A stretch of DNA of 64,000 nt, taken from IMG/VR virus record IMGVR_UViG_3300045988_039444. One strand, 5' to 3'. Of this stretch, positions 3,830-51,579 are shown piece by piece. Origin of the DNA: a virus. The position numbers were made by a program, and so were the translations under genes. The first letter of the stretch is position 1. Each line of letters begins with the position of its first letter. The notes beneath the pieces were generated by a model. That model did no database searches. It saw only the letters and a list, made by a program, of their open reading frames with translations, and had not been told where the DNA came from.

Positions 3830-3890
3830 GTGACAAGTGGGCGTGCAACCTCCTGCCCCACCGGGTCAGCGAAGCCCGAAGGGCTGAGCT
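3830..3890. repeat. GC-rich repeat element, copy 1 (core plus GCCC-GAA-GGGC hairpin). Intergenic, immediately after the plus-strand block.
   Basis: Reads GTGACAAGTGGGCGTGCAACCTCCTGCCCCACCGGG followed by CAGCGAAGCCCGAAGGGCTG. The 30-bp core is identical or near-identical to copies at 28334, 31551 and 51513. Sharp GC spike in an AT-rich genome. Confidence 0.9.
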
Positions 3891-3970
3891 ATCAATGTTA
3901 CAACTTTAATTGCTACTATAATTGTTGTTATTATTAATAACGATATTACTAACATAATAAGTGATACAGA

Positions 3971-4018
3971 CAGACCGTCAGAGTGCCTATTTTCAGGCGT
4001 TCTGACGGTCTTTTTTTT
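3971..4018 (+). terminator. Rho-independent terminator for the plus-strand block.
   Basis: Perfect 11-bp stem AGACCGTCAGA…TCTGACGGTCT with an 18-nt loop, followed by T8 (4011-4018). Confidence 0.7.
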
Positions 4019-4040
4019 GTCAGTTAGACAAATGTACCAT

Positions 4041-4088
4041 TAACAAAAGATAATGCCCGTAGCAGGCTGGGAAGCACCGCCACGGGCA
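4041..4088 (-). terminator. Possible terminator for the minus-strand giant gene (convergent with the previous one).
   Basis: On the minus strand, GCCCGT…ACGGGC (6-bp GC stem, long loop) followed by ATTATCTTTTGTT, just 3' of the stop at 4114. Confidence 0.35.
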
Positions 4089-4113
4089 AATATCCGACGT
4101 TTACTCTATTAGA

Positions 4114-7100
4114 CTATTCGTCCTCGTAGTTATCACTATCTTTCGGACTAATCATTTCTCTAACACCACTAAATGTAATACCAAAAGGATTATACATATT
4201 GTAATAAGACATAGTAGCACCGAGATTATTAAACTTATTAATTTGACGAAGAACAGGAACAGCTTGACGTAATGCAACTGCACGTTTATCTTGTCCCTTA
4301 TAAATACCTCTATCATAAATAAGTTCATCATCATCAACCCAAAGACCTTGAATAGTGAGATTAACAAGTTTATATGCAGATTGTAAAGTTTTCTGACCAG
4401 CAAACAAACTATTTGCAGTTTGTTCTATTGTAGCCATCCAACCAAATACTGGCATAGGTTCAATCATTTGTTGATAATAAGTTGTTGCAGCATACATAGC
4501 GTGCTGATACAAAATATTATCTTCGTCATCATCATCTTTCTTAAATGCACCAAGTGTCATAGCAGCAAGAGCACTGAAAGCTAAAGCACCCATTAAACGA
4601 GCAAATTTCATAGTTGCTATCTGTTCATTTAAAGGAAGAGTATTATAATAGAATCCTACATTAAGTAACCAACTTGATACACCTTTGAAGAAATTACCAA
4701 TACCTTTCATATAGTCGATAACAGTATTGTTATCATTAAGACTATCTTTGAAGGCTTGACTACCACTTCTAAACATATCAAACATAGGATTAAATATAGG
4801 AACTTCATAAGAACCTAATTGTTCATTATAAAATATACGACCGAAACGACGACCGAAATAACGAACAAAGTTAGGACGAACCCATTTCTTAAATTGCATT
4901 AACAAATCACCAAATGCAGCATCTTGTAAACTATTTCTGTCTACACGATTGTAAATACCATGTAATGATTGGTTAATAGCTTTAACTCGACCACGGAACT
5001 CCGAAAGAGTTTCTTCTGTAAGACCACTTTCAGGATTAAAACTCAAACGACCATTTACAAGTTTAAGTTCCGAACGAAGAGTATTATATTTATCAAAAGC
5101 TTCACGTTGAACTTTTTTATCAGTCTTTCGAGAATCAACAATTTTCTTACGTTGTTCATCAGAAAGTAAATTATAATGTGATTTAAGATATTGAGAAGCA
5201 TAATCATGATTCCATAAATACTCTTTTGAAGTACGTTTTTCTTCACGAGCTATCTCAGCATCTAAATCTTCTTTGAAAATAAGATATTTATCATATTGTT
5301 CATTAGTAAGAACATCTTGTAATAACTTTTCAAGATTATCATTATAAAAATCATTGAAAGCCATAATTTTACCACCAACTACTCGATGAGATTGCGTAGC
5401 AGCAAGTAACATACCAAACTGCATAATGAACTCACCCATGTTATTAGGAGCATAACCAACAGTATCAACCATTCGCATAGCTTTAATCCAATAGGAAGTT
5501 CCAGTATCAGAAGATGTTACATCACGAGTATCTTGATAAATATCATCAAAGTCTTTAATGATTGCTACAAGTATATCATCAGTTCTTGTCGAATTAATAT
5601 CGCGTAAGAAATGAGGAATAGTTTTAATAACATCACGAAGACCTGATTTCATAATATCTTTGCTTTCAACAAAGTTATTAGCAGTAGATTCAACTATCAT
5701 ATCAGTAACACCTTTGAGAATATTAGTGATACCGGCAGTATAGTTGAGATACATGAAAGTCATAGAAGTATAACGTAATAATGCACCGGCAGAAACATCG
5801 AGAGCACTATTATATTTACTAAAATTAAAAATACGACGTTCCATATTATTTAACTGTTCATTCGCATTTTTAATAATATCACGAGGTGCTACACCAGAAA
5901 CTCCACGTTCATTCATTAAATATTTCGTAAGCTGATAATCAGTTTCAAAATTATTAATTGCACGAAGATTATAAAGTTCTTGTGTAAAACCTTTCATTAC
6001 ATCAACAATATCATAAGACATCACATTTGCTTTATACTTTTTATTTTCAAGCATTACAGCATCGTTATAATGTCTAATCTCACGAAGAGTTGAAGGTTTA
6101 ACTGTAACAGGAAGTTTGTTATTTTTATCAAACCATTCACTAAACAATTCTACAATTCGAGCTTCGTATTCAGTATAACTTTCAGATTTGTACTTTTTAC
6201 GAATATTAAATACAGGAATATGTTTAGGAACTTGTAAAGTTTGAGCTTTTGTAACAAATCGTTTAGTACCATCAATGTCAGTATAATACCTATCTTTATG
6301 AATCATAGGAATACTAACAAATTGTTTAGCAGATTGACCTAATGTAGCTTGAGGAATGAAAGGCATTACCTCATCCCATCTACCATAATAGTTAATCCAG
6401 TTACCGTCATATTCACGAATAGTTCGTTGAATAAGATTACGAATAGTATTGAGTAATTTTTGTTCTTTATCACTTAAAGCTGCATATTCATCTGATACTG
6501 GGGTATTACCAAAATCAAGTTTATAAAGAACGTTTTCACGCTTACCACTAATATCAGTAATAAGACTAAGTTCAATAAGGTCGTGAGTTTGTAAATAAAC
6601 AAGTTTCTCACGATTACTTAATTCAGTAAGTTCAGCAAGATGTTTAGCTGCTTCATTATCATTTAATGGAACAATGTTCCAAGTGTGATTTTCGTTATAT
6701 TTCTTTATAATATCATCAACGATTTCAAGAGTTTTTTCAGCAGTAGCCCTTGTAACAAATCCACTGTCAGTATAGAGATTCTGATAAATAGCATCACGAA
6801 TATCTTTTCGTAAAGTACCAGTCGAATCTCCAAGACCTTCAGTTTTATAACTACCGATTAAATCTCCATATTCATTAATGAATTTGTGCATTAACTTTTC
6901 ACGAGCACGAGCATTTTTAGAAAGTCCCGGTTGGAACTCTTCAAGTGCACTTTCAAGTTCATCATTAATGCGTTGAGCTGCTTTCTTAGCTTTATAATTA
7001 GCTTCATCCCATGCTTTACCAGTAATATCAATCAGAGTAATACCAGTTGTAAAAGCAGAATCAAGCCAAAGTTGTGTCTTATTAATATCTTTATCAAGTT

Positions 7101-10100
7101 CAAATAACAAATGCTGAATTTCTAACCATTCATCTTCTGTTATTTCAACACTATTAACATCAAATCCTTCAAGGCTACCATTATGTGAAGCAAGATACTC
7201 TTTAATCTTACTAAACGCGGTAATATATTTAGGATTACGGCTCTTATCAATTACAGCCCAAGTTACCACATCTTTAACAGATTGAATAACATTAGACCGT
7301 ATTCCAGCAACTTTTGTTGCAAGAGATTTAAGTCGAGCTATATTATTATTTAATTCACCAAATTCTTTAGTAAATAATTCTTTACCTTCTTCACTTTCAG
7401 CGTCATAAACTGTATCTTGAATTTTTATTTCTTCAAGTGTAAGATATGGACTAAAATGAGAAGCAAGTTTTAACATCATTACAAGTCTATCTTTGTAATC
7501 AAGAGCCGCACCATAATTTGAACGAATCTCTTCATAATTCAAATCCTTAGTAATAGCCCACAATTGCTTAATAGCATCATAAACAGAACTACTCAAATTA
7601 GCCAAACGACTATAAGTAGCTTTCATTGCAGCAATATCTCGTTCTTCAAGAGCACTTTGAATACCACCTTCAAAACTTTCATCATCGAAGGATTTTAAGA
7701 TATTCATAAATTCCTCACGATTTCCAACATTGTTATTATTCAAAAATTTCTGGATTCTATCCATAATTTTCAAAGTTTCAATAGCAATATTAGAATCGAC
7801 AACAAGAGAATTTCGTAAACCATCTCTTGTAGGAACATCAGCATGAACAACACGAGAATATAATTTTTCATTATCACCATAAATATTAATATTCCTACGA
7901 GGAACATCAATATATGTTTCTGCAACTATTCGACCAACACCATCATTTAAGACAGTACTAACCGACGTCATAATGGGATTAATTCTGTAAAGATTACTAA
8001 TAAATGTTTTTGTCCAATCATCTAAATAATTGAAATCTCTATTAGCATCAATCAGAACATCACCATTAATATAAAGATTACCATTCTTTAACATAGGAGC
8101 TATACGAAGAGCTTCTTCGTAAGCAGACTTATTATAATCTACTTGAATTGCAGATTTATGATAACCTTTATAGAAAGAATGAGTTGCTTGTGTAGTAATA
8201 AAAATAGATGTAGCAGAAGATTCTAATTCATTATAAATAACATCGCTTGCAGAAGAATGTGTATGTTCAATATTAATGAATGTAGGAGTAGTAACTTCAA
8301 CTGAATTTAATACTTCAAAATCTGTATCAGATACAGAAGCAACATCAGTATCAATTACATCTTCTGTTTCAGCATCAACAGTGCTATCAATAGCATCTTC
8401 TGTTTCAATCATATTAGCATCATTGAAATCTGAATTTTCATCCATTTGGACTGATTCATTATCATCAATAGCTAACATGAATTTATGAATAGTATCAGAA
8501 TCTATAATAACCGATAATCTATCAGTTACAATAGTTTCACCATCTTTTTGAACTTGTGCCATCATACCTTCTTGATAAGTAGGTATAATACTAATGTCAC
8601 CAGTCATTAAAGACGCTTCATTACGAAGTAAAGGATTAACAGGTAAGAATACATAAATATCTTTTAATGGATTATTAGTATTCGTAGTAATTTTATATCG
8701 TTTATATACACGATTCTTACTACGAGTAATCCTTTCAGTTACATATTCTGCATTAGCATATTCAGAATTAATTAATCGAGCTTCAGTTTCAATATAGAAA
8801 TTCTGAGTATTACCATTTTCGTCAATATAAGAACCAATACCAACATTTTCGCCGTTAGCATTTTGAACATAACCAATAGTAGCTTTATTCTTATTTGCTT
8901 CCCAACGATAACGTTTTTGTATATCACTTAATAATACTGGATTCATATCTGATTTCATACGAGATATTAAACTCATAACAGGTGTAATATCTACATTTCC
9001 ATCAAATACAGCTTTTTCAGCATTTCTTAAATTCTCTGCGTAATTACCAAGATTAACAGAAGGGTCAGGATAATGAACTTCACGGCATAAAGCATCGTAT
9101 TCTGCATTAAGTCGATTAGTACTTATAAGTTCAATCGGAATATATTTTGAAACATTATAAGCATAATTAAAACCTTCTGTAACATAAGTATAAACTAATA
9201 ACTGACGTATCGTATGAGCAATGTAAGGAATTTTACTATCCCACATACGAAGAATACTATCAGTCATATTAGACCAAGAATTGACATCATTATCATCACG
9301 TTGGATTCTAATAACATCATAAGGTACAGAACGATTATTCTTACGAACTGTTAAATACTTAAATATGTTATCGCCTCTAAATTCAGGTGATTTCTCAATA
9401 TAATCTCTTAATGTACTATCTTTTTGAATAAATTGAATTTGTTGAGCAAGTGAAAGTTTAGTGTATTGAGTAAAACTTTCAGGTGTATAACCATCTTTAA
9501 CAGTATTCAAAAGAGTCTTAAAGATAAGTTTTTGTTCTTTAAGTTGTTCCTCTGTATGAATACCTAACGTAGTAAGAACTTCGGGAGTATTATCAGGTGT
9601 TAAAATAGGAAGAACTTTAACAAGTCCATTATCTAATCCACCGTTAATACTTACGAGATAGTTCATAATACTATCAGTAACATATTTATAAGTAGATTCA
9701 TCAATCGAATTTTTACGTTGAAGTATCTGACCTAAAATCGTATTAGTAATGTGATGATTTCGAGTAATGAAAACATCGCCGAAACCATTAGCCATTAACC
9801 AATGTGCATACTGATAACGAGCTTGAATTACTCCGTAAGCACTTTGATTTTCAGTATCATTAAATTTGTTGCCATCAAGATAACCTTCAAATGAACCAAC
9901 AAATATACTTTCAATAATGTCTTTACCATTATCAAGAATTACCTTATTAGGAGTTTCATATCCAACAGCTAAATCCTCAATGAGTTCACGACGTGTCATA
10001 ATATCATTTCGTTTCGGAAGTTCCGCACGAAATCTTTTCATATCAGAATAAGTAATCGCAGCAAGAGGATTACCTTTAACATCTTTTGGTTTATAATGCC

Positions 10101-13100
10101 GTCTAAAAGCATCAGAACTTTCACGAGTAAAAGCAGCTTTAATCGCATCTATTGCTTTAGGATTACCAGCATTTTCTTCGATATATTCATCAATAAATCG
10201 AAGTGTTTGATTATACTTATCATTTACAAGTTCTTTTAAAGCTTTTACTGGATAATAATATTCAGCAAGTTTACGTTCTTTTTGGTCAGCCTTAAAGAAA
10301 CTATCAACCCTACTTTCACTTTTAAGCATAAAGTTAAGGTCAATCAAATTAGTAGCAATTTCATTATATTCAACAAAATTACCAAGAACGCTAATCTGAC
10401 GTAATAACCAATCTGCTGTACGATTATCACGATTTTTAATATTATCTAATAACTCTTCAGTAGTTTGATAACCATATTTACCACTGATTTCATTAATAGT
10501 TATATTCGGTAATTTATCTTTCAGTTCGTTAAGCTGTCCAACAGTAAGAGTTTTAGTTTTACTTTTACCACTTGCGACAGTCATTATGGCATCATGAGAT
10601 TCAACAGGAGTAATTTCTTTTTTAACAATTAAATCAGCATAAATCTTAGCAAGTTCTACACTATAATCAGAACGAATTGCTTCGACAGCATCAAGAATTG
10701 TAAAATTGCCACGACTTAATGATTGAACTTCCATTCGATTAACTGCTTCAACAATAGCAGGTTGATGAATAAAAGCATCCTCATTAGTAAACCTATTAGC
10801 TTTACCATTATAAAGTTCAATAGTAACACCAGATGATATAGCACGAGCTACACTTAAAGTATGAACATTAAGATTAAATCCAAGTCCAGCTTTAAGAACA
10901 TCAAGAATACCAGAAGTAAACTGATTCATTTGAAGTTCAACTCGCTCACCACTAATATCCAAATGTTCATTAAGTGCATCATTATTAATCCAAACATCAT
11001 TAACCCAAAGAGCATTTTCTTTTGGCAATAATTGGATATTTTCAGCACCATATCGTTTAGCTAAAAACTCTTTATATTTACTTGTTAATCGAGGTACACC
11101 TTTATCACTTACAGTGTACATTTCACTTCTATCAGTAAAACCTTTAGGTATCGGTAAAGAATTAAGACTAATTTTACGACGAATACCTTTAAGTAATCTA
11201 CCATGTAAAGTAGAAATTGTTGCGATTAAAGTATCGAAATTAACAGAGTGACCTTTAAGAACTGTTGAACCCATACTCATGTTATTAAGAGTAATCTTAT
11301 CCATGAGATTATTAGGATTCAAAGTTTTAAGAGTATAATTCCAAAAAGCATTATCACGGTCAGATACGGCTTGAATTTCAGCCATACCATTGGGTTTATT
11401 TACTTCTTCAGCATGATTTGGATTAGAAAGAACAGCTGTAATAATATCAATCAAATGATTATCACGAGCTTCTCTACTATTCAATTCATAAATACTCTCG
11501 TTTTGAACAAAGTCTTTTGTAAAAGCATTAAATGCCTTATCAATATTACTTTGAATAGCACTTAAATGAGGAATAATAGTTTTATCAGTATCTTCAACAA
11601 GATATTGGAATTTTGATTTAATAGTATCAAAATTACTAATTGTATCAGGAGAAATATTAATAGTAGCTAACTGACTATTAACATTCTTAACAAACTTAAT
11701 TAAATCATTGATTGCTTTATGAGCACGAATTAATAAATCCGAAGTATAAGCACGTTGAGTTTGAGTGTAATTACCAAAATCTTCAGTAACACCATCTCGC
11801 TTATTAGCAAGATACTCTCGAACTAAACTATTTACATCACCGTAATTCTTTGCAAATCCATACTGTAAATTATGCAGAATAGATTTAAGAATCTTAGTAT
11901 ATTCCGGATTACTTTTAACATCTTGCAAATCCTCTTTAATTAATTCAATTATATTATTAAGAGGAGATTGATTTGTATTAGTAGGTACTAAATTAGGATT
12001 ATAATATCGGCTAATCCACTTAATAATAGCATTAAAATTATGACTTGTTAAATTAGTAAATTTTTGCGGAGTAGTGGCTAATTCGATATACTTTTGCTTA
12101 AATACCGACCGTGTGAATTTACCCCCTACTTGGGCCTGCGAGGCATCAAATTTCGACTTAAATTCGACAGGTATATATTTGTCTTGCTCAAAAATTACAT
12201 TGCGATAGTAGGCGTAAATCGAGTCAATATCGAAGTCCCAGCCAGTACGAGTAATAAGACTTTGTGGGAATATAGCTTGTGTAGCATTATTATTAAGAAA
12301 ACCAACAACTTCAAATACAACCATTGATTGTTTACCCTCGGTAGGAATACGAATACCTATCATCCGACGAGCTTTGACATCAAGTTTGTCAATATCAACA
12401 GTTATAATATCCTTAGTTGTACCATCTTCATTAGTAATAGTTTTAACAGTACCAATATTTTTATAGAAATCCATTTTCCACGGATTAACTATAACTTCTG
12501 CATAATGATAATTTCCATCCTCACGATATTCAGCTTGTAATTCAAGACTTCTACCAGTTCGTTTACATTCTTTAATAAAACTTGAAGCGTATGTAATAGA
12601 ACCATTAGCAACAAGTTCATCAATCGTTTTATTATAAAGTTCTTTATCAGAATAGAACTCTTTATGTTTGATTAACTCATTACTTGCAGTAAATATGTCA
12701 GCTCGAATAGGAGCATGGAATCCGGGAAGATATTTATTAATAACTTGTTTACTTAACATAGAAGCAAGTATCTTCTCTAACTTACCTTTAATAACAGGAT
12801 AAGATAAAGGCATAATAGGAAGACCATCTTCTTTAATTTCAAGAGCTTTTCGAATAGTTATAGCATCAACATCATCCGATATAATTTCTTGAAAACGATT
12901 AACAAGTTTATTTATATCAATTTGAATAGCACCGCGAGCATCAGTTCGAATTTCACCATTCTCATCGATACCACCAATATCGTAAAGTAATTGCATAGCA
13001 TCTTCACGAATATTAGTAGCTAATGTCTTTTGAAATTCATCAAACAGTTCTTTACCAGTAACATTTTTGCCATCTAATTCATAAATAGCATTATTCCAAT

Positions 13101-16100
13101 CAAGACCTTCCATAATCTGCTTAACTAACTGACCACCTAAAATAGTAGTTTCATCAAGCAAATCAGCTTTAATATCTTGTTGAATAACAAAATCACTATC
13201 TCGCATATAAAGAATAGACCTATCATCTACTCGATTTAGTGCTTCAATATCAAGACCACCTTGGTCATTATGAATTTTAACTGGTGTAATACCAGATACT
13301 TTAACAGCAGAAATAGGACTAACTTGGTCAATATTATTTTGAATCATCCAATCATATAATTGACCAATAGCACTACCTCGTGTCATACTTTCAAAAAGAA
13401 CAACAGTTGAGTCTTTTATTTGAACACTATCTACTTCATCAGCAAATATATCAACTTCATTACCAGTTACAGCCGGAGCATGATAAAAATCACCACGGCG
13501 ACGACGAGTTGTACCAAACAATTTAACTTGTTCTACAACCTTAGCGTAAGATGTAGGATTAAATGTTTTAGTCGGGTCTTGTAAATCAGTAATATATTGA
13601 TACAAAGGTTCACTTGGATTCCAACGACCAGTGGCTTTCAAAAGTTTAATAAGACCTGCATCAGTCATAATAGACTGAGAATCATTAATAGTAGCAGTAG
13701 CACGATAAGCATCCAAAATAGCTTCATTTTGAATACCCATTTTATCAAGAATATTGCTATTGAAATTCATATCTTCCATAACAACAACCTTACGAGGAGT
13801 ATCATTATGAATTAAATCAATAGAATTAAGACCATTCTTAATAACTTGTGCTACACGTTTATTGAGGTCTACTGTATCTTTATATTCTTCAATATCACCA
13901 TTAAATATAGCGTTCATACTATGATTATAGATAGTATGATTAAGTAATACTTTAAGTAAACTTAATCGAACACCATCATTATCCATAATATCATAAGTAG
14001 CAAGAACGTGCTGACGAGCGCTATTTAACAAACTTTCTTTCTTTAATGTAGGGATAGTATCAAGAGTATATTCTTTACCATCAGCTTTGCGACGTTTAAT
14101 CCAATCATTAGCTTTCTGATTATATACTTCTTGAACTAAATCTGCTAAATAACTATCGAAAGTAGTAACGACACTTGTATCAGTTTTGATATTAGTATCG
14201 TAAATACTTTTAGCAATATTTTCAAAACTATCAACACCAGTTGTAGCATTCCAACGAATGTAAGCAGCTACAAAATCTCGAATATTACCAGTATTAGCAA
14301 CAAGATTTTCATCGTAAGGTTCATTACGAACTTGTGCAATCATATTACGATAAACTTCTGTAACATCTACATTATTTATCTTTGCAATATGAGCAGGTAA
14401 TGTGATATTCTTACCATTCTCAATATAAGTAATATTCAAGAACTGAAACGCCTTACCAGTCGGAATACCTTTTGCATCATAAATAGCTCTACCATTCCAA
14501 TACTTTCGATTATGACGAGTTTTCATTTGAGCAAAATTCTCGTCGCTATTATCTCTTAATTGGAATATAATTTGTCCAAAAGTATTAAACTTAAAGACAT
14601 CACTATTTACAATCTTTTCGATAGAATGAAAAACATTGGATTCTTCATTTATCGGATTATCTGTTATACGAACAAACTTATTTCGTGCAACAATATTATC
14701 TAAATATTCAGTTACATAAGAATATATACGAGGAGCATGAGTAGCTAACCTACTACTAATACCATTCATCGGAAGATAAATATTTAATCCACGAGAAATA
14801 GCATCATTAATAAATGGAACTACTCGACTTTCAAAATCTTTTACATAGGCATCATAATCTGCATCAGTAAAATAATCTGTTGTCGTAGGTTTATTCGGAG
14901 TAATATTCTCACCCTTAAAACCATCAATTTCGATAGTATTTTTAAGACCTCGAATAGATTCTTGTCCAGATGTTGCTGGAGCACCTATCGCACGACTTTT
15001 AGTATTACCTGAGAAAATAAATACCGATTTAGGATGTGCTGCAACAGCGGCAGGTGTATAATTAGAACCAAAAGTCTTAACGTGAATTGAAGTACGAGGC
15101 TTAGAAGAATCTTTAATAAATAAATCATCAACTTCAAGTCGTTTTGTAGTCATCATATAACTACGAGGACTATCAGATGTTAAAAATACATATTGACCAA
15201 ACATATTAAGAATAACTTCGGTATATGTATAAAGAGCACCTTGTACTTCACGATATTTCAAACCTTTATTTCCAATCTTAACACCATTAAATGCAGATAA
15301 TGCAAACTGATAACGACGTTCAACATCAGAAATAAATACAGGATTTACTTCGTATTCACCAATACTATTTTTAGTGAATATACCAAGACCAGTCTTTTCA
15401 TCATAAATAAGAATATTATCTTCTGCACCCGGAGCAGTTAAAGTTGGGTCATTGAGATAATCCTTAAATATATGTTTAATATATTCAGTATTTACACCAG
15501 TACGAGTAACAAATCCACGAAGGAACTTTGTAAGCATACTATCATACTGAGGTGAATAATTAAGTTTACCTTGAACATCAAGATAACTCATATTCGTAAA
15601 ACTGTTAAAATCATAAGTAGCAATTTGTGCTAATGAATATAAATATCCATTAATATTATGTGCAGGAATTTCTTTGCCACGATATGTATTAACACGATGT
15701 TTAGTATCGTTAACTACATTTTCAAGAAGAGAATTAACTCTTGAATATACTTCATTAGCATTATCGTTCGCATTATAATATTGAGTAAGAGCATCACGAG
15801 TAATTGCTAATCCTAAATAATTAATTACAGACATCTGTTTATCTAACAGAGCTGCTTTATCAATCTTACTACGTCTTGAAATAGGTTCAAAAATACGTTT
15901 AGATTTAGGATTAGTATAAAGTACATCATTCAGATTATTATATAATCCAAATTCAATATTTGTACTTAAAATACTTTCAAATCTATCAATATATGTTTTA
16001 ACACCAAATGATTCTCGATTATTCTGATAAATCGTAGCATTATTACCACCTTCTAATGCCATAATATTTACAGGAATAACAGCAAGTTTAATTCCAGAAA

Positions 16101-17292
16101 TATAAGCATTTACAAAAGAATTATCATAATCAGAAGCAGCAGAACCATCATCTTCAAATACTCGTTGGAATATTTCAAGAATAGGAGTAAACTCATCATT
16201 TATAGCTGCAAGTTGTTGCAATCTATTATATACATCTTGAGGTTGAATATCGTAAAGATGTGCCTCAATAAGTTTATTCCATAAAACATTAATATCAATA
16301 GGAGCAGGAATATACGCTTTGTTAGCAGTTCTATTTTTGAAATTACTCGAACCTACAAGAAGAGCTATTTGAGCTTTAACATGAGATGCTAACGTATTCT
16401 TTCTGTCAATACGTTCTTTTTGCAAATCATCCCACATTACCTCAATATCTTCAATAACATCACGTTGTCCTTCTTCTGTACTTTCATCATCAACAATCCG
16501 ATTATTCTGATAAGCACGCTTACGATTAATACCATAGTTCTTATCAATATAATCAAGAAAATAATTAAAGATTTGACTATTACCTTTATTCAAATCAGTA
16601 AGTACATTTGCTACAAAAATATCGTTGAATCTTGTAGGAATAAAATTAGGTCGAGCTTTATACTCTTCAAGTTCTTTATTAAACTCAGCAAGAATTAAAG
16701 CCTTAAATCCACTACGAGAAACATCTCGATAATTAGCTCCAAAACGAGCTTGTCTTTGTTCCGCAGTAAGACCTTTTAACTTAAAGTAAGCAGCAGTTAA
16801 AACACGAGCCATATAAGCATAATCCATCTCATCAAATGTAGCAGTATTTACAATAGACGGATTAAAAGCGTGTTTAATATCAAGACCTAATGCGTTACCA
16901 AGAGATTCAAAATCTTTACGAATATCTTCACTATAAGTTTCATCTGTCGAAAGAGCAGCTAATACAGATTCTAATTTAAGTTCTCCACTTGTATAAACGG
17001 GATAACCCGTAGCTCCATAAGGAGTACGGGCATCCGCTTCTGCATATAAAAACGCTGTAAGAATACGACGCTTAAAAGCATTTTCTAATGACACATCAGC
17101 ATTATCTTCAGCATAACCTCGAATATTATTATAATCTTTAATAGTAGGTAAAACACCTTTTCCCATTAAAGATGTAATAATATCTTCAATAGGCTTAGTC
17201 TTAAAAGACTTCATTTGATGATAAAGACCAGATTTCTCAAGTCTTCCATCAGCAGTTAAACGATAAGGTTCAGGACTACATTGTGCATTCAT
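4114..17292 (-). CDS. Giant virion-type protein (4392 aa). Candidate crAss-like virion-packaged RNA polymerase, carrying a DFDID motif resembling the DxDGD/DbDGD catalytic loop of double-psi beta-barrel RNAPs.
   Basis: Uninterrupted 13.2-kb ORF in AT-rich DNA. Contains …TRTGWDFDIDSIYAYY… (encoded about 12222-12236). Sits at the distal end of the structural array, as giant RNAP-like proteins do in Crassvirales. The assignment is inference. Confidence 0.8.
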   Translation of the reverse strand: MNAQCSPEPYRLTADGRLEKSGLYHQMKSFKTKPIEDIITSLMGKGVLPTIKDYNNIRGYAEDNADVSLENAFKRRILTAFLYAEADARTPYGATGYPVYTSGELKLESVLAALSTDETYSEDIRKDFESLGNALGLDIKHAFNPSIVNTATFDEMDYAYMARVLTAAYFKLKGLTAEQRQARFGANYRDVSRSGFKALILAEFNKELEEYKARPNFIPTRFNDIFVANVLTDLNKGNSQIFNYFLDYIDKNYGINRKRAYQNNRIVDDESTEEGQRDVIEDIEVMWDDLQKERIDRKNTLASHVKAQIALLVGSSNFKNRTANKAYIPAPIDINVLWNKLIEAHLYDIQPQDVYNRLQQLAAINDEFTPILEIFQRVFEDDGSAASDYDNSFVNAYISGIKLAVIPVNIMALEGGNNATIYQNNRESFGVKTYIDRFESILSTNIEFGLYNNLNDVLYTNPKSKRIFEPISRRSKIDKAALLDKQMSVINYLGLAITRDALTQYYNANDNANEVYSRVNSLLENVVNDTKHRVNTYRGKEIPAHNINGYLYSLAQIATYDFNSFTNMSYLDVQGKLNYSPQYDSMLTKFLRGFVTRTGVNTEYIKHIFKDYLNDPTLTAPGAEDNILIYDEKTGLGIFTKNSIGEYEVNPVFISDVERRYQFALSAFNGVKIGNKGLKYREVQGALYTYTEVILNMFGQYVFLTSDSPRSYMMTTKRLEVDDLFIKDSSKPRTSIHVKTFGSNYTPAAVAAHPKSVFIFSGNTKSRAIGAPATSGQESIRGLKNTIEIDGFKGENITPNKPTTTDYFTDADYDAYVKDFESRVVPFINDAISRGLNIYLPMNGISSRLATHAPRIYSYVTEYLDNIVARNKFVRITDNPINEESNVFHSIEKIVNSDVFKFNTFGQIIFQLRDNSDENFAQMKTRHNRKYWNGRAIYDAKGIPTGKAFQFLNITYIENGKNITLPAHIAKINNVDVTEVYRNMIAQVRNEPYDENLVANTGNIRDFVAAYIRWNATTGVDSFENIAKSIYDTNIKTDTSVVTTFDSYLADLVQEVYNQKANDWIKRRKADGKEYTLDTIPTLKKESLLNSARQHVLATYDIMDNDGVRLSLLKVLLNHTIYNHSMNAIFNGDIEEYKDTVDLNKRVAQVIKNGLNSIDLIHNDTPRKVVVMEDMNFNSNILDKMGIQNEAILDAYRATATINDSQSIMTDAGLIKLLKATGRWNPSEPLYQYITDLQDPTKTFNPTSYAKVVEQVKLFGTTRRRRGDFYHAPAVTGNEVDIFADEVDSVQIKDSTVVLFESMTRGSAIGQLYDWMIQNNIDQVSPISAVKVSGITPVKIHNDQGGLDIEALNRVDDRSILYMRDSDFVIQQDIKADLLDETTILGGQLVKQIMEGLDWNNAIYELDGKNVTGKELFDEFQKTLATNIREDAMQLLYDIGGIDENGEIRTDARGAIQIDINKLVNRFQEIISDDVDAITIRKALEIKEDGLPIMPLSYPVIKGKLEKILASMLSKQVINKYLPGFHAPIRADIFTASNELIKHKEFYSDKELYNKTIDELVANGSITYASSFIKECKRTGRSLELQAEYREDGNYHYAEVIVNPWKMDFYKNIGTVKTITNEDGTTKDIITVDIDKLDVKARRMIGIRIPTEGKQSMVVFEVVGFLNNNATQAIFPQSLITRTGWDFDIDSIYAYYRNVIFEQDKYIPVEFKSKFDASQAQVGGKFTRSVFKQKYIELATTPQKFTNLTSHNFNAIIKWISRYYNPNLVPTNTNQSPLNNIIELIKEDLQDVKSNPEYTKILKSILHNLQYGFAKNYGDVNSLVREYLANKRDGVTEDFGNYTQTQRAYTSDLLIRAHKAINDLIKFVKNVNSQLATINISPDTISNFDTIKSKFQYLVEDTDKTIIPHLSAIQSNIDKAFNAFTKDFVQNESIYELNSREARDNHLIDIITAVLSNPNHAEEVNKPNGMAEIQAVSDRDNAFWNYTLKTLNPNNLMDKITLNNMSMGSTVLKGHSVNFDTLIATISTLHGRLLKGIRRKISLNSLPIPKGFTDRSEMYTVSDKGVPRLTSKYKEFLAKRYGAENIQLLPKENALWVNDVWINNDALNEHLDISGERVELQMNQFTSGILDVLKAGLGFNLNVHTLSVARAISSGVTIELYNGKANRFTNEDAFIHQPAIVEAVNRMEVQSLSRGNFTILDAVEAIRSDYSVELAKIYADLIVKKEITPVESHDAIMTVASGKSKTKTLTVGQLNELKDKLPNITINEISGKYGYQTTEELLDNIKNRDNRTADWLLRQISVLGNFVEYNEIATNLIDLNFMLKSESRVDSFFKADQKERKLAEYYYPVKALKELVNDKYNQTLRFIDEYIEENAGNPKAIDAIKAAFTRESSDAFRRHYKPKDVKGNPLAAITYSDMKRFRAELPKRNDIMTRRELIEDLAVGYETPNKVILDNGKDIIESIFVGSFEGYLDGNKFNDTENQSAYGVIQARYQYAHWLMANGFGDVFITRNHHITNTILGQILQRKNSIDESTYKYVTDSIMNYLVSINGGLDNGLVKVLPILTPDNTPEVLTTLGIHTEEQLKEQKLIFKTLLNTVKDGYTPESFTQYTKLSLAQQIQFIQKDSTLRDYIEKSPEFRGDNIFKYLTVRKNNRSVPYDVIRIQRDDNDVNSWSNMTDSILRMWDSKIPYIAHTIRQLLVYTYVTEGFNYAYNVSKYIPIELISTNRLNAEYDALCREVHYPDPSVNLGNYAENLRNAEKAVFDGNVDITPVMSLISRMKSDMNPVLLSDIQKRYRWEANKNKATIGYVQNANGENVGIGSYIDENGNTQNFYIETEARLINSEYANAEYVTERITRSKNRVYKRYKITTNTNNPLKDIYVFLPVNPLLRNEASLMTGDISIIPTYQEGMMAQVQKDGETIVTDRLSVIIDSDTIHKFMLAIDDNESVQMDENSDFNDANMIETEDAIDSTVDAETEDVIDTDVASVSDTDFEVLNSVEVTTPTFINIEHTHSSASDVIYNELESSATSIFITTQATHSFYKGYHKSAIQVDYNKSAYEEALRIAPMLKNGNLYINGDVLIDANRDFNYLDDWTKTFISNLYRINPIMTSVSTVLNDGVGRIVAETYIDVPRRNINIYGDNEKLYSRVVHADVPTRDGLRNSLVVDSNIAIETLKIMDRIQKFLNNNNVGNREEFMNILKSFDDESFEGGIQSALEERDIAAMKATYSRLANLSSSVYDAIKQLWAITKDLNYEEIRSNYGAALDYKDRLVMMLKLASHFSPYLTLEEIKIQDTVYDAESEEGKELFTKEFGELNNNIARLKSLATKVAGIRSNVIQSVKDVVTWAVIDKSRNPKYITAFSKIKEYLASHNGSLEGFDVNSVEITEDEWLEIQHLLFELDKDINKTQLWLDSAFTTGITLIDITGKAWDEANYKAKKAAQRINDELESALEEFQPGLSKNARAREKLMHKFINEYGDLIGSYKTEGLGDSTGTLRKDIRDAIYQNLYTDSGFVTRATAEKTLEIVDDIIKKYNENHTWNIVPLNDNEAAKHLAELTELSNREKLVYLQTHDLIELSLITDISGKRENVLYKLDFGNTPVSDEYAALSDKEQKLLNTIRNLIQRTIREYDGNWINYYGRWDEVMPFIPQATLGQSAKQFVSIPMIHKDRYYTDIDGTKRFVTKAQTLQVPKHIPVFNIRKKYKSESYTEYEARIVELFSEWFDKNNKLPVTVKPSTLREIRHYNDAVMLENKKYKANVMSYDIVDVMKGFTQELYNLRAINNFETDYQLTKYLMNERGVSGVAPRDIIKNANEQLNNMERRIFNFSKYNSALDVSAGALLRYTSMTFMYLNYTAGITNILKGVTDMIVESTANNFVESKDIMKSGLRDVIKTIPHFLRDINSTRTDDILVAIIKDFDDIYQDTRDVTSSDTGTSYWIKAMRMVDTVGYAPNNMGEFIMQFGMLLAATQSHRVVGGKIMAFNDFYNDNLEKLLQDVLTNEQYDKYLIFKEDLDAEIAREEKRTSKEYLWNHDYASQYLKSHYNLLSDEQRKKIVDSRKTDKKVQREAFDKYNTLRSELKLVNGRLSFNPESGLTEETLSEFRGRVKAINQSLHGIYNRVDRNSLQDAAFGDLLMQFKKWVRPNFVRYFGRRFGRIFYNEQLGSYEVPIFNPMFDMFRSGSQAFKDSLNDNNTVIDYMKGIGNFFKGVSSWLLNVGFYYNTLPLNEQIATMKFARLMGALAFSALAAMTLGAFKKDDDDEDNILYQHAMYAATTYYQQMIEPMPVFGWMATIEQTANSLFAGQKTLQSAYKLVNLTIQGLWVDDDELIYDRGIYKGQDKRAVALRQAVPVLRQINKFNNLGATMSYYNMYNPFGITFSGVREMISPKDSDNYEDE

Positions 17293-28297: not shown

Positions 28298-28333
28298 AAT
28301 TTTATAATGATTAGTTTGTAAATTAGTTGTAAC

Positions 28334-31528: not shown

Positions 31529-31550
31529 ACCATTAAAAGTTTGAGTAACA

Positions 31551-31617: not shown

Positions 31618-31624
31618 TTACAAA

Positions 31625-37544: not shown

Positions 37545-38258
37545 TTAATCTTGACCATTACCACGTTGAGCAATAGTAGGATTATTATTATTTGTTTTAA
37601 TATCCAAATCTTGAGGATAAATACCAAATTCAGTTTTAAGTATTTCTTGAATTATACTTTCAAGCATATCATTAGGTAAAGGTAATTCAATATCTTGACC
37701 ATCTTCATTCTTAAAGAACGAAAGAACTTCATCAGGATTTTCAAATATACCTGTAATCATTACTTCATTAATTGGTCGTCTATCATCAATATCTTTTGTA
37801 CCAACTTTTTCAGCAATAATTATATGACCGTTTAATATAATATAAGCTCGTGGATACCCGGTGGGAGAGCAGGTTGGACGCCCACTTTGACGTAGTTTAA
37901 GAGATGTAATAGAACTCTCATACATATATCCATTACCAACAGTATCACCTACAAACGCAAAAGGCGCATCACTTTGTATGCGCACGGGTGTAGGAACTTT
38001 GTACTTTGTTCCTAACAATCTAATTTTATTAGCAACTCGATATTCAGTAGGAAGAATATCACTATATTTCAACTCTTCAACAGGAGCAATAAAAGTAAGT
38101 TTAAGAATATCATCTATTCCATTTTTCTCAACGCTTTGTCGGATACGATTTGCAAACATAGTTTTAATCATATCTTTAACACGTTCTTTAAGTTCGTGAT
38201 TATTAGGTTGATTAACCATGTTTGCAATACGAGCTGCATATTGATTAAGTGTTCCCAT
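37545..38258 (-). CDS. Hypothetical protein (237 aa) carrying an in-frame degenerate copy of the GC-rich element.
   Basis: ORF. The element core at 37857-37888 is translated as …QSGRPTCSPTGYPRAY…. Confidence 0.65.
   Translation of the reverse strand: MGTLNQYAARIANMVNQPNNHELKERVKDMIKTMFANRIRQSVEKNGIDDILKLTFIAPVEELKYSDILPTEYRVANKIRLLGTKYKVPTPVRIQSDAPFAFVGDTVGNGYMYESSITSLKLRQSGRPTCSPTGYPRAYIILNGHIIIAEKVGTKDIDDRRPINEVMITGIFENPDEVLSFFKNEDGQDIELPLPNDMLESIIQEILKTEFGIYPQDLDIKTNNNNPTIAQRGNGQD
37857..37888. repeat. GC-rich repeat element, degenerate core-only copy inside the 237-aa CDS (in frame).
   Basis: CCCGGTGGGAGAGCAGGTTGGACGCCCACTTT versus consensus CCCGGTGGGGCAGGAGGTTGCACGCCCACTTG, about 85% identity. 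Confidence 0.7.
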
Positions 38259-48094: not shown

Positions 48095-48106
48095 ATCATT
48101 AAACCG

Positions 48107-51100
48107 TTAATTAGATTCGACATTACCAACCCTAAATATAGGATGTTCAATACCATTACCTTCTATTTGCATATAGTCAATACCATCATTTTCAAATACT
48201 GGTTCAGGTACTAATTCAATAGTTGTAACACTATGATTTGCAAGATTATCATAACTTTGATTATATTCAGTGTAGCCATCACGTCTAACCAAAATTACAA
48301 CCTTTGAATCATAAGTACCACTAATATGAGCTATACCTTGATAATCAGTAACGATAGTTTTAACAGAAGAACTAAACCAACAACTAATACCTGTGGTAAT
48401 AGGAGCTTTAGTAACAGAATCTACAAATTTAAGAGCTATATAATCTTGACCTTCTTTCGGATGTAAATCAATATAATTGACAACAGCTTCAGAAGGTTTA
48501 GCTGCAATAAACAATGCAGGTTCAGTAGCTTCATAACGAGTATCGCCTAAAGTCTTATAATTACGTTCGAAACCAATCGGATTAGCTTCACTAACATAAC
48601 CATCTTCTGATGAATCACAGTTACCTATCTTTTTACCAGTTTCATCATAAATGGTATCACTAATCATGCAACCAGTTAAAGCATCCCGTGTACGAACTTT
48701 AATAAGGCCGTTATTATTACGAAGACATAATATCTCAACTGTTTTATCAGTATCAAATACTACTTCTTCACTACCAATATTATACCAATCAGAAGATAAC
48801 GGTAAAGCATAATAAGTTATAACACTATTTTTATTCTTTGTGATTACCAAAGGTTCATCAGGTCTGGTTGTACCAACAGTAGTTCCAGTACTTGATATTT
48901 CTTTAATATCAGCAGCTAAATAAAGTTTATTACTATCATAAATTTCATAAGCCTTGATGGTTACAGAAACCTCTTCGGGTTCAGGCGGTAACTCTTCAAG
49001 TACAATAGTAACACTATGTTCACCAGTAGAATTAATCGTACCAGTTCCAGTGTTAGTTATATAACCAGTTTTAGAAGCTCGGAAATCAACACTTGTTCCA
49101 ACTGGAGCTGTAATAGCCTCAGATTTACCAGCAGTCAATTCATCATTATTGAGAGGTTTCCAATCACTTTCAGTACTGAGTTTATACTCAAACGTAACAC
49201 CGTCTAAAGCAGTAGATTCAGTATTTACAGCAGTTGCATAGATAGTACCAGATTGAACTGGAACTTTATCCATTTCAACAGTAACTTCTGCGGTAGGAAT
49301 TGCATAAGTTACCAGTTGTTCAACCTCTATATAACCCGACGAAACAAACCTTAAAATTCGGCTCGTATTGACATCTCCGATGAGTTGTAATGGCGTATCT
49401 TTTGTAACTTGACCTAATATACCACCCGTGTCTTTATCATAGACGTATGCGGCTATTTTGGCCTTTGTTTCGCTATCAACTACCGTAAGACTTACAGCAC
49501 CTTGTTCAACCGGTAGAGCAATAAGAGTAATATCACGAATTATATTCTCATCCAACGTAATACGCTCTTCATAAGTTTCATATCCACTTGCACCAACTTG
49601 AATTAAAATATCACGCGGGTCATAAGTTTCATATGTAAGAGTACCAGTACCTTGAGCAATAACTACATTAGAAGGTTTATCAGTAAATATAATTAAAGCA
49701 TTATCAGGAGTTGCATTTACAGTTAATGTCTTTTTAGTCTTAGGTGTAAGAACAACATTAATTGTCGTATCTTCAGCACCTACATCGACATAAACATCTT
49801 TTGTAATGTAATTCTCTTTTTCTACAATATAATGTAAACGACTTTGAATTAAACATTCAAGACTTGCACTGCCAACACCTACCGATTCTTTACCTTCCGA
49901 ATTAATCATTCGTATAGTAGAATCAAACGGAACAGCTTCAATCTTAATTGTTATATAATCTTCTTCATTTCGAGGAATACGAATCCAAAGTGTACCATCT
50001 TCAAACGTAGTAGGAATTTCGCTTGTAACTTCAATTTGATTAATACTGTTGCTACGAACATGATTATTATGTTCTACAACAATACCATAAATCTCATTAA
50101 TAGCATCTACAATACGTTTGTTATCAGTAACAAGTTCTTCAGAAGTTTTATCTTGCTTATTAATAAGCAAACCTTGAAGTTCTTGAGCTTTTTGTTTTAA
50201 TTTCTCAATATCACTTGCGGCTGTTGGTAAACCAACTTGTGCGGCAGTAACTCTATGAGGATTATCATAATTACGAATATGAGCATTGAAATTATCTTTG
50301 TCATTCTCGTAATCTTCTTTATCAAGTTTCTTGTTTATAGCAGCCCAAACATCTTGAAACTTTTTATTAACTTCTGTAACATGATTGTTAATCCAAACAT
50401 TCAACTGTTTGAACCAACCTTTAACCCTATTTTCAAGAGCATCAATGTACTCTTTTTGAGGTCGAGATACAGGTTTATCCATATCGGCAGTGTTATCAAC
50501 ATTGCCAAGACCAACTTGTTCTTTTGTTACCTCATGAGGATTAAACTTATTATTAATATGTTCAAATAAAAGTTTTGTAAGTTGTTCAACAGGATTTAAG
50601 TCCTCAGCTGTAAGCTCACGAACATATACTTGAACATCAAGAATCTCATTAACAGCATCATTAAAATCAAAATTGGTCTTTACATTCGTCCGATAAATCC
50701 ACCAAGATTTACCTTCATGAACATAAATACCAGTAAGAGTAAATATCTGATTACTTATGATACCTTGTACTGTAATTGTATGTATAGAACGAACAATTGG
50801 TACAAGTATATAAAGATATTGTTGAGTTGATTTAACCCACGGAACTTTATATTCATAATGTCCTACATCAATATTTCGAGATTCAAACTCGGTAATCTTT
50901 GCAGAACTAATATCAGATTTTTCAGTTAGCTTAAATAGAGCACTATTATCGTAAGCAGTTACATTAGTTAAGTCTATTTCAATCCTCTCCTTTGTCCTAT
51001 ATAAATATAGGTGGCCGTTTTTTCGATAGTACATATATAATGTAGGAACTGTTTTAACACCAGCACCTTCACCATCTACTGTACCAATATATTCTCCGGT

Positions 51101-51181
51101 TTGGCCATTATAAACACTCGGATATACACCATCTTCAAGCACACCGAGCGCTACAACATTTCGAAGATTAATTACTGCCAT
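48107..51181 (-). CDS. Tail fibre / receptor-binding protein (1024 aa).
   Basis: Two copies of the tail-fibre-type motif NPH-VT-x2-QVGL (NPHEVTKEQVGLGNVDNTADMDKPVS and NPHRVTAAQVGLPTAASDIE). Ig-like beta repeats. The C-terminal motif DGIDYMQIEGNGIEHPIFRVG is shared with the 571-aa protein. Confidence 0.75.
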   Translation of the reverse strand: MAVINLRNVVALGVLEDGVYPSVYNGQTGEYIGTVDGEGAGVKTVPTLYMYYRKNGHLYLYRTKERIEIDLTNVTAYDNSALFKLTEKSDISSAKITEFESRNIDVGHYEYKVPWVKSTQQYLYILVPIVRSIHTITVQGIISNQIFTLTGIYVHEGKSWWIYRTNVKTNFDFNDAVNEILDVQVYVRELTAEDLNPVEQLTKLLFEHINNKFNPHEVTKEQVGLGNVDNTADMDKPVSRPQKEYIDALENRVKGWFKQLNVWINNHVTEVNKKFQDVWAAINKKLDKEDYENDKDNFNAHIRNYDNPHRVTAAQVGLPTAASDIEKLKQKAQELQGLLINKQDKTSEELVTDNKRIVDAINEIYGIVVEHNNHVRSNSINQIEVTSEIPTTFEDGTLWIRIPRNEEDYITIKIEAVPFDSTIRMINSEGKESVGVGSASLECLIQSRLHYIVEKENYITKDVYVDVGAEDTTINVVLTPKTKKTLTVNATPDNALIIFTDKPSNVVIAQGTGTLTYETYDPRDILIQVGASGYETYEERITLDENIIRDITLIALPVEQGAVSLTVVDSETKAKIAAYVYDKDTGGILGQVTKDTPLQLIGDVNTSRILRFVSSGYIEVEQLVTYAIPTAEVTVEMDKVPVQSGTIYATAVNTESTALDGVTFEYKLSTESDWKPLNNDELTAGKSEAITAPVGTSVDFRASKTGYITNTGTGTINSTGEHSVTIVLEELPPEPEEVSVTIKAYEIYDSNKLYLAADIKEISSTGTTVGTTRPDEPLVITKNKNSVITYYALPLSSDWYNIGSEEVVFDTDKTVEILCLRNNNGLIKVRTRDALTGCMISDTIYDETGKKIGNCDSSEDGYVSEANPIGFERNYKTLGDTRYEATEPALFIAAKPSEAVVNYIDLHPKEGQDYIALKFVDSVTKAPITTGISCWFSSSVKTIVTDYQGIAHISGTYDSKVVILVRRDGYTEYNQSYDNLANHSVTTIELVPEPVFENDGIDYMQIEGNGIEHPIFRVGNVESN

Positions 51182-51462
51182 ACCAAGAACAATAACGAAA
51201 TAAATACTCCAACTACAAAGTTAATAATAATAGGATGAATTTTAAGACCAGTTATTGCTTTCTTTCTTACAGCTTGGATACCACAAGTAATGATTTGATA
51301 AGCTAATGTAATCCATAAACTCATAAACCAAGTAGCAACAGTAGCCTTAAATAAAATACCTACGACAGTAGCAATGACGAAACCAATAATAATATCGTCT
51401 TTATGTTCTGAATAATAACCACTTAAAAAAGTAGTTATTTTATTCCATATTTTCTTTATCAT
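51172..51462 (-). CDS. Small membrane protein (about 97 aa from the internal Met; the ORF track extends it to 51579 through the GC element).
   Basis: Start at ATG 51462-51460 (MIKKIWNKITTF…). Three hydrophobic helices (IIIGFVIATVVGILF, WFMSLWITLAYQII, IINFVVGVFISLLFLVW). The upstream extension (MTSGRATSCPTGERGRRPS…) is the GC element read in frame. Confidence 0.55.
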   Translation of the reverse strand: MIKKIWNKITTFLSGYYSEHKDDIIIGFVIATVVGILFKATVATWFMSLWITLAYQIITCGIQAVRKKAITGLKIHPIIINFVVGVFISLLFLVWQ

Positions 51463-51512
51463 AATACTAATCGTATTTATTGTTATATGACGATTAATAA
51501 TAATAATGGTGC

Positions 51513-51579
51513 AACTTGTATGGCTCGGCCTGCGGCCTCGCTCCCCGGTGGGGCAGGAGGTTGCACGCCCACTTGTCAC
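51513..51579. repeat. GC-rich repeat element, full copy (GGCC-TGC-GGCC hairpin), flanked by direct ACTTGT. Intergenic.
   Basis: AACTTGTATGGCTCGGCCTGCGGCCTCGCTCCCCGGTGGGGCAGGAGGTTGCACGCCCACTTGTCAC. Its left flank ACTTGTATGGCTC is shared with copy 28334. Confidence 0.9.

Follow-up and report, generated by a model that had tools for sequence, protein, structure and literature searches.

The heptamer d(GCGNAGC), known as 'mini-hairpin DNA', is extraordinarily stable, and its RNA counterparts are far less stable, with a melting temperature (Tm) of 39 C for r(GCGAAAGC) (PMC13037366). The same mini-hairpin occurs in the G4 complementary-strand origin and in ssiA of RSF1010 (CCGAAGG), and the promoters of the N4 virion RNA polymerase contain GCGGAGC hairpins with GGA or GAA loops and a 5-bp stem (PMC13037366). 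Here we describe GC-rich elements that carry hairpins of this type in a 64,000-nt stretch of viral DNA (IMG/VR record IMGVR_UViG_3300045988_039444; the whole stretch is hereafter called the window), which is identified from its genes as a crAss-like phage (Crassvirales). A virion RNA polymerase is present in the crAss-like phages as it is in N4, but the two polymerases are not known to be related. For the virion-polymerase promoters of phi14:2, no upstream motif was found.

Repeats of comparable form have been described in other systems. Repetitive extragenic palindromic (REP) elements, as outlined in one account, carry a tag at one end, GTAG or CGTC (PMC3733652). PeSLs of T4-type phages are conserved promoter and stem-loop motifs that mediate module exchanges (PMC2839356), and sponge mitochondria contain repetitive hairpin-forming elements (PMC2800124). 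A survey of MITEs (miniature inverted-repeat transposable elements) in viruses reported its Bacteroidota-linked viral sequences to be unrelated to known crassphages, and our full-text searches of the literature on GC-rich, hairpin or palindromic repeats of crAss-like phages gave no description of the present elements.

Results

The repeat family

In this crAss-like phage the GC-rich elements make up a family of structured repeats that is lineage-specific and dispersed, with about 14 copies per genome of ~93 kb. The window holds seven of them (A, G, B, C, D, F and E; Table 1). The initial annotation of this DNA had listed five copies, all of which are real, and had overlooked G and F, which lack an arm. 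The core of the element is 29 nt long, asymmetric and fixed in its spacing, A-GTGGGCGT-NN-AACC-N6-CCCAC-CGGG; its end blocks AGTGGGCGT and CCCACCGGG are nearly invariant and its middle is variable. Read on the core strand, the full element is CG(C/T)GAC(A/C)A, GTGGGCGT-NN-AACC-N6-CC(C/T)AC-CGG(G), arm, GAGCC-NN-ACAAGTT(A/G)CA. The GC-rich 3' arm, a module of one to three small hairpins, is present in most copies (five of the seven in the window) and is conserved in shape alone: the pair that closes each hairpin is C-G, the triloop is G-N-A, the stems covary, and GCGNAGC units often lie alongside. Copies A, D and E share a GC/GA/stem/GA/GC frame with tandem G.A mismatches.

It is evident that such a pattern does not recur by chance. 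The core pattern GGAGGTTGCACGCCCAC matched the window six times against 0.01 expected, and a weight matrix built from 62 distinct copies gave exactly seven matches with scores of 64-81, no score above the cut-off of 12 in the remainder of the window and none above 5 in 20 shuffles. For comparisons between copies, 363 instances with 125 distinct arm regions were gathered from IMG/VR, ENA contigs and gut metagenomes. Joining the window to the related loci L150 and L152/L052 covered all but ~6 kb of the genome and added seven sites, at about 65.3, 67.4, 72.5, 75, 78.7, 87.8 and 92 kb in window coordinates.

Pairing in the arms

The initial annotation had proposed that the arms differ in sequence but always form a perfect GC stem with a 3-nt loop, and the five hairpins it quoted are indeed all in the sequence as such stems. 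The differing loops that it gave (GAA, TGC and TTC) arose from a mixture of strands: on the core strand the loops of A, D, E, B and C are GAA, GAA, GCA, GAA and GAA, all of them G-N-A closed by C-G. Its outer CAGC...GCTG stem for copy A is impossible as written, overlapping the inner 3' arm, and the real arrangement is that of Table 1. When each of the five window arms was shuffled at matched composition, an equal or longer stem capped by a GNA loop was rare (P = 0.0004-0.016 each), and throughout the 363 copies all GC-rich hairpins of 4 bp or more have GNA loops in a strand-specific manner.

For a statistical test of covariation, 14 distinct arms, both paralogous and orthologous, were aligned on the loop and compared with shuffles. 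Pairing was found in 82.7% of cells (58.2% in the shuffles), and 18 cells were double changes (6.1 in the shuffles) with no one-sided change at all. The covariation score was 0.44 against 0.10 and was reached by none of the 500 shuffles, and slid registers of the alignment gave 22-37% pairing. All 14 arms are closed by C-G. At the second pair from the loop, eight arms have G-C and six have C-G, and stem positions 2, 3 and 5 from the loop alternate among G-C, C-G, U-A and A-U. This alignment consists of segments picked as hairpins, with all arm-bearing copy types known beforehand represented; a later metagenome scan yielded a few further arm variants, with GNA loops in all.

Polymorphism within sites among the 363 copies points in the same direction. 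Stems were changed at 6 of 770 positions and flanks at 109 of 3694, which is about four times lower in the stems. The sole recurrent stem change is a compensatory replacement of G-C by T-A at site C (CTGGGC/GCCCAG to CTGTGC/GCACAG) in seven copies, and a disrupted stem pair was found in one singleton copy only. Disruption is thus not as common as compensation, an outcome that would have spoken against the proposal, though the counts are small. In the loop, all five changes hit the middle N, with none at the G or the A. Much of the difference between copies in the window is a swap of whole arm architectures (short, long, or absent at orthologous sites) and not stepwise substitution. Two independent comparisons, covariation in the arm alignment and within-site polymorphism, support the proposal of the initial annotation that the arm hairpins are under selection for shape and not for sequence.

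GCGNAGC units

The long arms (B, C and three sites outside the window) contain three direct GCGNAGC units spaced ~13 nt apart, of which the middle one is the apex of a 7-bp hairpin. The flanking units are direct repeats and are therefore unable to extend the main stem. All 123 long arms examined have an intact 3' unit, with G, A or T at N, and the 5' unit varies almost solely at N. In the window, seven of the nine occurrences of GCGNAGC fall within A, B and C, all on the element strand. Whether the structure is a DNA cruciform or an RNA stem-loop had been left open in the initial annotation; the strict strand-specific C-GNA-G together with GCGNAGC is a signature that points to DNA rather than RNA. 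Antisense copies also keep GNA on the element strand, so that the mRNA would contain UNC loops.

Table 1. Coordinates of the element copies in the window and of the inverted pair in Kahucivirus relatives (own coordinates of each locus).
Copy	Extent	Strand	Core	Arm	3' box	Context
A	3829..3904	+	3837-3865	AGC/GA/AGCCC-GAA-GGGCT/GA/GCT 3868-3890; hairpin AGCCC-GAA-GGGCT 3873-3885; GCGAAGC 3869-3875	ATCAATGTTACAAC	3 nt past the stop of the last + strand gene 3560-3826, ahead of a real terminator
G	17418..17454	+	start 17426; core only, GACCAGTGGGCGTCAAACCCACTCCCCCACCGGG	none		antisense, in frame within ORF 17296..25272; encodes PGGGVGLTPTG
B	17671..17755	-	17719-17747	long, three GCGNAGC units; units 17710-17716 and 17685-17691; main hairpin GCTGGGC-GAA-GCCCAGC 17693-17709, apex 17698-17704		sense, in frame within ORF 17296..25272; translated as SGRATSSPTGERSAGRSPAAEPTS
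C	28326..28413	-	28377-28405	GCGGAGC 28368-28374; main hairpin 28350-28366; GCGGAGC 28341-28347	ATACGAGTTACAAC	intergenic, sense; between gene 28511..31528 and the next gene (ATG near 28336)
D	31549..31622	+	31557-31585	short, GC/GA/GGCC-GAA-GGCC/GA/GC 31588-31606; hairpin GGCC-GAA-GGCC 31592-31602	ACAAGTT 31610-31616	intergenic, antisense; between muzzle gene 31625..35899 and gene 28511..31528
F	37857..37893	-	start 37885; core only			sense, in frame within tail Ring-2 gene 37545..38258; encodes SGRPTCSPTG
E	51508..51580	-	51544-51572	short, GC/GA/GGCC-GCA-GGCC/GA/GC; hairpin 51527-51537	ATACAAGTTGCACC	intergenic, sense
Kahucivirus pair, L153 (cr127_1)	42020-42065 / 42215-42260					46 nt, 83-89% complementary, 149 nt apart
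Kahucivirus pair, L290-L292	1335-1380 / 1530-1575					46 nt, 83-89% complementary, 149 nt apart

Placement and orientation

Relative to the neighbouring genes, eight of the 14 sites are sense and six antisense. Neighbouring copies alternate in orientation in 10 of 14 cases (P about 0.09, not significant), and five antisense-then-sense pairs and one sense-then-antisense pair together comprise 12 of the 14 copies. The density of elements is highest in the early region. Nine copies are intergenic, all in short gaps by gene starts or ends. Five are in frame within open reading frames (ORFs), among them F, B, G and one antisense in the N-terminus of a small early-region gene; the L132 lineage has a further sense copy. 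The reading frame gives SGRxTxxPTG in both coding copies of sense orientation and PGGGxGxTPT in both of antisense orientation, with rare GC-rich codons in an AT-rich genome and Gly/Pro/Ser/Thr-rich, loop-like peptides.

Copies G and B, near the C-terminus of a 2658-aa ORF, form an inverted pair of 43 nt (17412-17454 / 17719-17761), 81% complementary and 264 nt apart, which is located 120-460 nt upstream of a 4392-aa gene (4114..17292, Pfam DUF7831), presumably the virion RNA polymerase gene. Copy C is inverted relative to D, with which it shares 39 identical nt; between the two lies a single gene, the one that follows the muzzle gene, and this arrangement is found in four lineages. This 1005-aa gene (28511-31528) has a glycine-zipper or holin-like segment at residues 467-552.

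Some observations concern annotation and assembly. Mechanical ORF calls begin at a GTG inside C (28405) and E (51579), which gives spurious N-terminal extensions. Seven IMG/VR loci (L007, L053, L071, L079, L097, L114 and L134) end inside or at an element, two of them with poly-G/C runs, suggesting that the hairpins may disturb sequencing or assembly. Three metagenome-derived Ring-2 variants (P0001, P0002 and P0005), 99% identical to that of the window, have deletions of 19-41 aa that border or remove the core-encoded peptide, which could be real repeat-linked variants or assembly errors.

Conservation among relatives

Element positions are kept in lineages as far as ~55-60% protein identity. 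In L092 and L094 the sites F, D and C persist, and in L099 sites D and C do so, with the core only or with other arms. B and G are kept in L149 (61% protein identity), where the apex is still GGGC-GAA-GCCC but tandem G.A stands in place of the outer pairs. Between the intergenic C and D and their counterparts in L092 and L094, the core is 62-86% identical and the flanks about 50%. Copy F is not an insertion, since SGRxTxxPTG is ungapped in Ring-2 homologs down to ~45% identity; the conserved Ring-2 residues coincide with the invariant DNA blocks (codons GGG, CGT, CCC, ACC and GGG). In L092 and L094 (about 60-67% Ring-2 identity) the Ring-2 gene reads CCT ACC GGC AGT, a synonymous change, and the non-coding copies at D and C of the same loci have closely similar 3' blocks, CCCTAYCGGCAGT or near variants. 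Coding and non-coding copies therefore evolve in concert. The picture as a whole is one of ancient copies under constraint at the level of the nucleotide sequence.

The closest GenBank genome is the uncultured phage cr127_1 (Kahucivirus, Crevaviridae; 72% capsid protein identity). The core was not found in cr127_1 or in cr3_1. Instead, cr127_1 and three Kahucivirus-like contigs have a single inverted pair of another bipartite GC-rich motif (GGCCACAAGG-N9-GCGTTCC) inside the homolog of ORF 17296..25272, at the protein positions of B and G (Table 1). The middle of this motif differs between the two arms without compensation; the pair thus looks like two copies of a bipartite site and not a strict helix, and a strict long-range helix at B/G was rejected on this ground. 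At the homologous gene end of cr3_1 no inverted pair was found. The simplest history is an ancestral pair upstream of the giant 4392-aa gene and a later expansion to about 14 copies.

The sole GC-rich island of cr3_1 (L095, Intestiviridae; 44003-44040) is at the same convergent junction as copy A. Its sequence, GGGGAGCG-CAGGGC-GAA-GCCCTG, forms a GNA hairpin that resembles an arm, but no core can be recognised.

Exchange between copies

The six-nt middle of the core is polymorphic, with nine variants among 23 copies at one site. The variants differ by multi-nucleotide patches, and identical patches recur at other sites, a pattern as would be expected of gene conversion among paralogous copies. 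Site 3 (about 72.5 kb; L052 6890-6982, L152 1423), which lies upstream of the early small genes, has one downstream flank and six upstream flank classes, which bring different small genes in different genomes, with the mosaic junction exactly at the repeat. Two other sites have at least two flank classes. Flank replacement is thus found at 2-3 of ~15 sites, and at none of the other dozen.

Comparison with known systems

The closest likeness is to the N4 promoters and the single-strand initiation signals. The elements have the identical 7-mer GCGGAGC of N4 and strand-specific 4-7 bp GC stems with a 3-nt GNA loop (here GAA, GGA, GCA and GTA), including arms with the N4-type stem of 5-7 bp and GGA or GAA triloop, and CCGAAGG of ssiA also occurs in copies A and D. 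Primase initiation signals (G4 ori, ssiA) are single-stranded DNA sites with a hairpin at which a primase begins synthesis; the resemblance to them is one of mini-hairpins. In contrast to all of these, the phage hairpins are joined to a separate 29-nt core, in ~14 copies, in both orientations, also in genes and mostly in the late region. The co-oriented upstream placement of N4 hairpins is not a feature of the family: the GNA strand is the template strand for the adjacent genes at only six of the 14 sites, of which three are armed (D, site 3 and site 14).

Like REPs and BIMEs, the elements are short GC-rich imperfect palindromes in many copies and both orientations, with inverted intergenic neighbours and concerted evolution. 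On the other hand, they have an asymmetric core with a separate arm, five copies are inside ORFs and not extragenic, and neither a GTAG/CGTC tag directly 5' of the stem, as precedes the 20-40 bp imperfect palindrome of REPs, nor a RAYT transposase was found: the 5' extension is CG(C/T)GAC(A/C)A, and CGTC is seen in few copies only, apart from the stem. No Y1_Tnp or other transposase, HUH or HNH domain was found in the window ORFs, the scanned L150 proteins or the Pfam listings of L150 and L152. Nor do the elements resemble MITEs, their ends being direct ACAAGT boxes, often differing within a copy, and not inverted repeats or a duplication. All 75 comparisons with related loci across a site showed it filled, with no empty site in a set that is biased towards element carriers. 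Rickettsia palindromic elements (RPEs) and the hairpin elements of organelles are likewise GC-rich repeats in AT-rich genomes, translated in frame and kept at orthologous positions; unlike them, the phage elements are much shorter, have end blocks strongly conserved at the nucleotide level, show no evidence of insertion (B, G and F are in frame, but F is ungapped and B and G are retained at 61% identity) and have no sequence relationship to elements of the organelle type. PeSL cassettes share with the phage elements a short conserved motif and a stem-loop at gene boundaries of a virulent phage, with some mosaic junctions (PMC2839356, PMC4122927), but the phage elements have no recognisable promoter or T-run terminator, most sites are non-mosaic, and some copies are coding.

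Several other identities were rejected. A T-run follows no arm, which excludes an intrinsic terminator. No tRNA or tmRNA was found; the reverse complement of the core is T-arm-like (GTGGG, 7 nt, CCCAC), but position 56 of the loop is not C and there is no acceptor partner, and one search pattern also picked up real tRNA T-arms. Rfam gave no match at the gathering score over the whole window, and chance-level miRNA matches around copy C had E values up to 10. A host origin was rejected with one match in 185,579 species genomes, on an 11-kb contig of a metagenome-assembled genome that resembles phage; no element copy was found in GenBank phages. An intron or translational bypass does not fit copy B: its boxes are 71 nt apart, a length not divisible by 3, and the ORF continues through it to a conserved C-terminus. 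An invertible segment is not supported, since the inverted arrangement occurs in no related locus and an inversion between G and B truncates the protein. The variable positions are not linked to adenine and no reverse transcriptase was seen, contrary to a diversity-generating retroelement. A CRISPR-repeat mimic, an integron attC, a dif/Xer site and an anti-Shine-Dalgarno mimic did not seem to fit. In sum, the element is not a member of the REPs, MITEs, RPEs, terminators or N4 promoters and shares working features with several of them, and is best read as a new REP/RPE-like family of structured repeats.

The phage and its gene layout

The crAss major capsid protein, portal, terminase, muzzle and tail Ring-1 and Ring-2 proteins were recognised in the window with PHROG and Pfam. 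From contigs bearing window genes the full genome is ~92-94 kb. GC content is 32%, and a range of 26-32% is also quoted for the genome. The early and replication genes form a + strand block and the structural genes a 63-kb - strand block ending at 4114. At the point of convergence, just downstream of copy A, a canonical intrinsic terminator (3975-4018; GACCGTCAGA...TCTGACGGTC followed by T8) serves the + strand block, and a second, terminator-like GC hairpin (4055-4090) reads for the - strand block. That true terminators adjoin copy A indicates that the elements themselves are not terminators.

The host is presumably a member of the Bacteroidota. For a 210-aa protein of the window (63295-63927), the public assembly collection lists 19,303 blocks, and ~3,000 of these include contigs of 50-200 kb, so the phage must be extremely widespread; nevertheless, it has no close phage record in GenBank. 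Other features are a BACON-domain protein in the tail region (46893-47531) and a 1122-aa 'terminase' ORF (60012-63380) that is over-extended, the gene called in L152 having 774 aa.

Discussion

We tentatively propose, with somewhat limited confidence, that the element acts on DNA as a hairpin or cruciform site recognised by a protein, with the core as the putative recognition site and the arm as a stability module. The core would be bound by a phage-specific protein, and the arm would let the core-bearing strand snap into mini-hairpins once it is unwound or negatively supercoiled, as may happen in cruciform extrusion, replication, recombination or transcription bubbles. The folded arm might leave the site accessible or tag it for a structure-specific enzyme. 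Candidates for the process served are transcription, priming, and break-induced recombination or replication. Action on DNA is suggested because loop identity tracks the core strand and not the direction of transcription, which argues against a signal in mRNA, because orientation relative to genes is about even, because the GCGNAGC units make sense solely as DNA hairpins, and because recombination seems to be active at the copies. If the elements often broke and were repaired, or annealed with one another, this would account for the patch exchange and the occasional mosaic junctions.

A number of points weigh against this proposal. The choice of DNA over RNA draws on loop chemistry and orientation counts at 14 sites only, and a GC stem of 7 bp folds well in RNA too. 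Arms are present in seven of the eight sense copies and in three of the six antisense ones. Nothing like a nuclease or transposase and no candidate binding protein was found in the window or L150. If core and arm were simply inherited as one unit, no function would be needed to link the GNA loops to one strand. Fold-back synthesis could yield perfect palindromes without selection, and gene conversion could homogenise a family that has no function, through concerted evolution. RNA folding z-scores of the whole element were unremarkable in most copies and are uninformative.

The alternative that fares best, though we regard it as rather unlikely, is a signal at the level of mRNA: RNA hairpins between cistrons that would stop 3' exonucleases or label processing sites in long polycistronic transcripts, with inverted neighbours, antisense before and sense after a gene or gene group, pairing over ~30-40 nt into long-range stems of the RNase III type. 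The stable hairpins of REP elements and of T4 intercistronic regions do stabilise mRNA. The placement of all intergenic copies beside gene starts or ends, the predominance of inverted neighbours, the C and D copies around one gene in four lineages, and the inverted pair of different sequence that Kahucivirus keeps at the position of B and G are all in its favour. However, the alternation of orientation is not significant, the arm middles of Kahucivirus are uncompensated, and B and G are only partly complementary. In addition, the two-bp GCGNAGC units are too weak as RNA hairpins and yet are strictly conserved, the antisense copies would present UNC loops in mRNA, and pairing alone fails to explain the strongly conserved asymmetric core.

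It is likewise unlikely, and slightly more so, that the elements are a selfish or fossil palindromic repeat, in which an ancestral burst left tolerated copies homogenised by gene conversion, and the hairpins reflect a fold-back origin and the repeat's own spread. GC-rich repeats within an AT-rich genome, the loop-like peptides of the in-frame copies, the gain and loss of arms at orthologous sites and the patches exchanged among copies agree with it, and so does the single pair of Kahucivirus, which places the expansion in the lineage of the window phage. But the analysis detected no transposase, no empty site and neither target-site duplications nor terminal inverted repeats, copy F is no insertion relative to the Ring-2 homologs, positions and end blocks are kept across deep divergence where intergenic flanks are near random, and the stems and the G and A of the loop are under purifying selection within populations.

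A more specific version of the DNA reading, about as improbable as the selfish repeat, would have the elements as genome-wide signals in single-stranded DNA, in which a GNA hairpin presents the core to be read by the virion RNA polymerase, a DnaG-like primase or a structure-specific nuclease; the nuclease would start recombination-dependent replication. If true, this would mean an N4/ssi-like hairpin code that evolved independently in a highly prevalent gut phage, and the ancestral pair would stand just upstream of the presumed gene of the virion polymerase itself.

In L150 (2556-3670), an element copy is directly followed by a 339-aa gene at the position of the 'DNA primase' gene of cr127_1. 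The protein of this gene gave a weak Toprim-like match (E = 0.095, short of the Pfam cut-off).

Finally, PeSL-like recombination linkers or regulatory cassettes, combining terminator and promoter and offering homology for module shuffling between co-infecting phages, are a very improbable identity: the multiple flank classes at site 3 and two further sites, the high density in the early region and the module exchanges ascribed to PeSLs fit them, but 12 of about 15 sites are without flank replacement, essential structural or cargo genes contain five of the copies, the hairpins lack a T-run behind them though true terminators are nearby, no promoter motif was identified in a scan whose promoter types may not be those of the host, and the 3' box is not enriched elsewhere in the window.

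The crAss-like phages rank with the most abundant viruses in the human gut, and little has been learned of their promoters, origins and regulatory DNA. The elements described here offer a clean natural case of selection on the d(GCGNAGC) mini-hairpin. As a practical matter, they may disturb assemblies, and they mislead the annotation of start codons. The elements account for local hypervariability and mosaicism in crAss-like genomes, and they supply concrete sites for tests of recognition by a polymerase, primase or nuclease.

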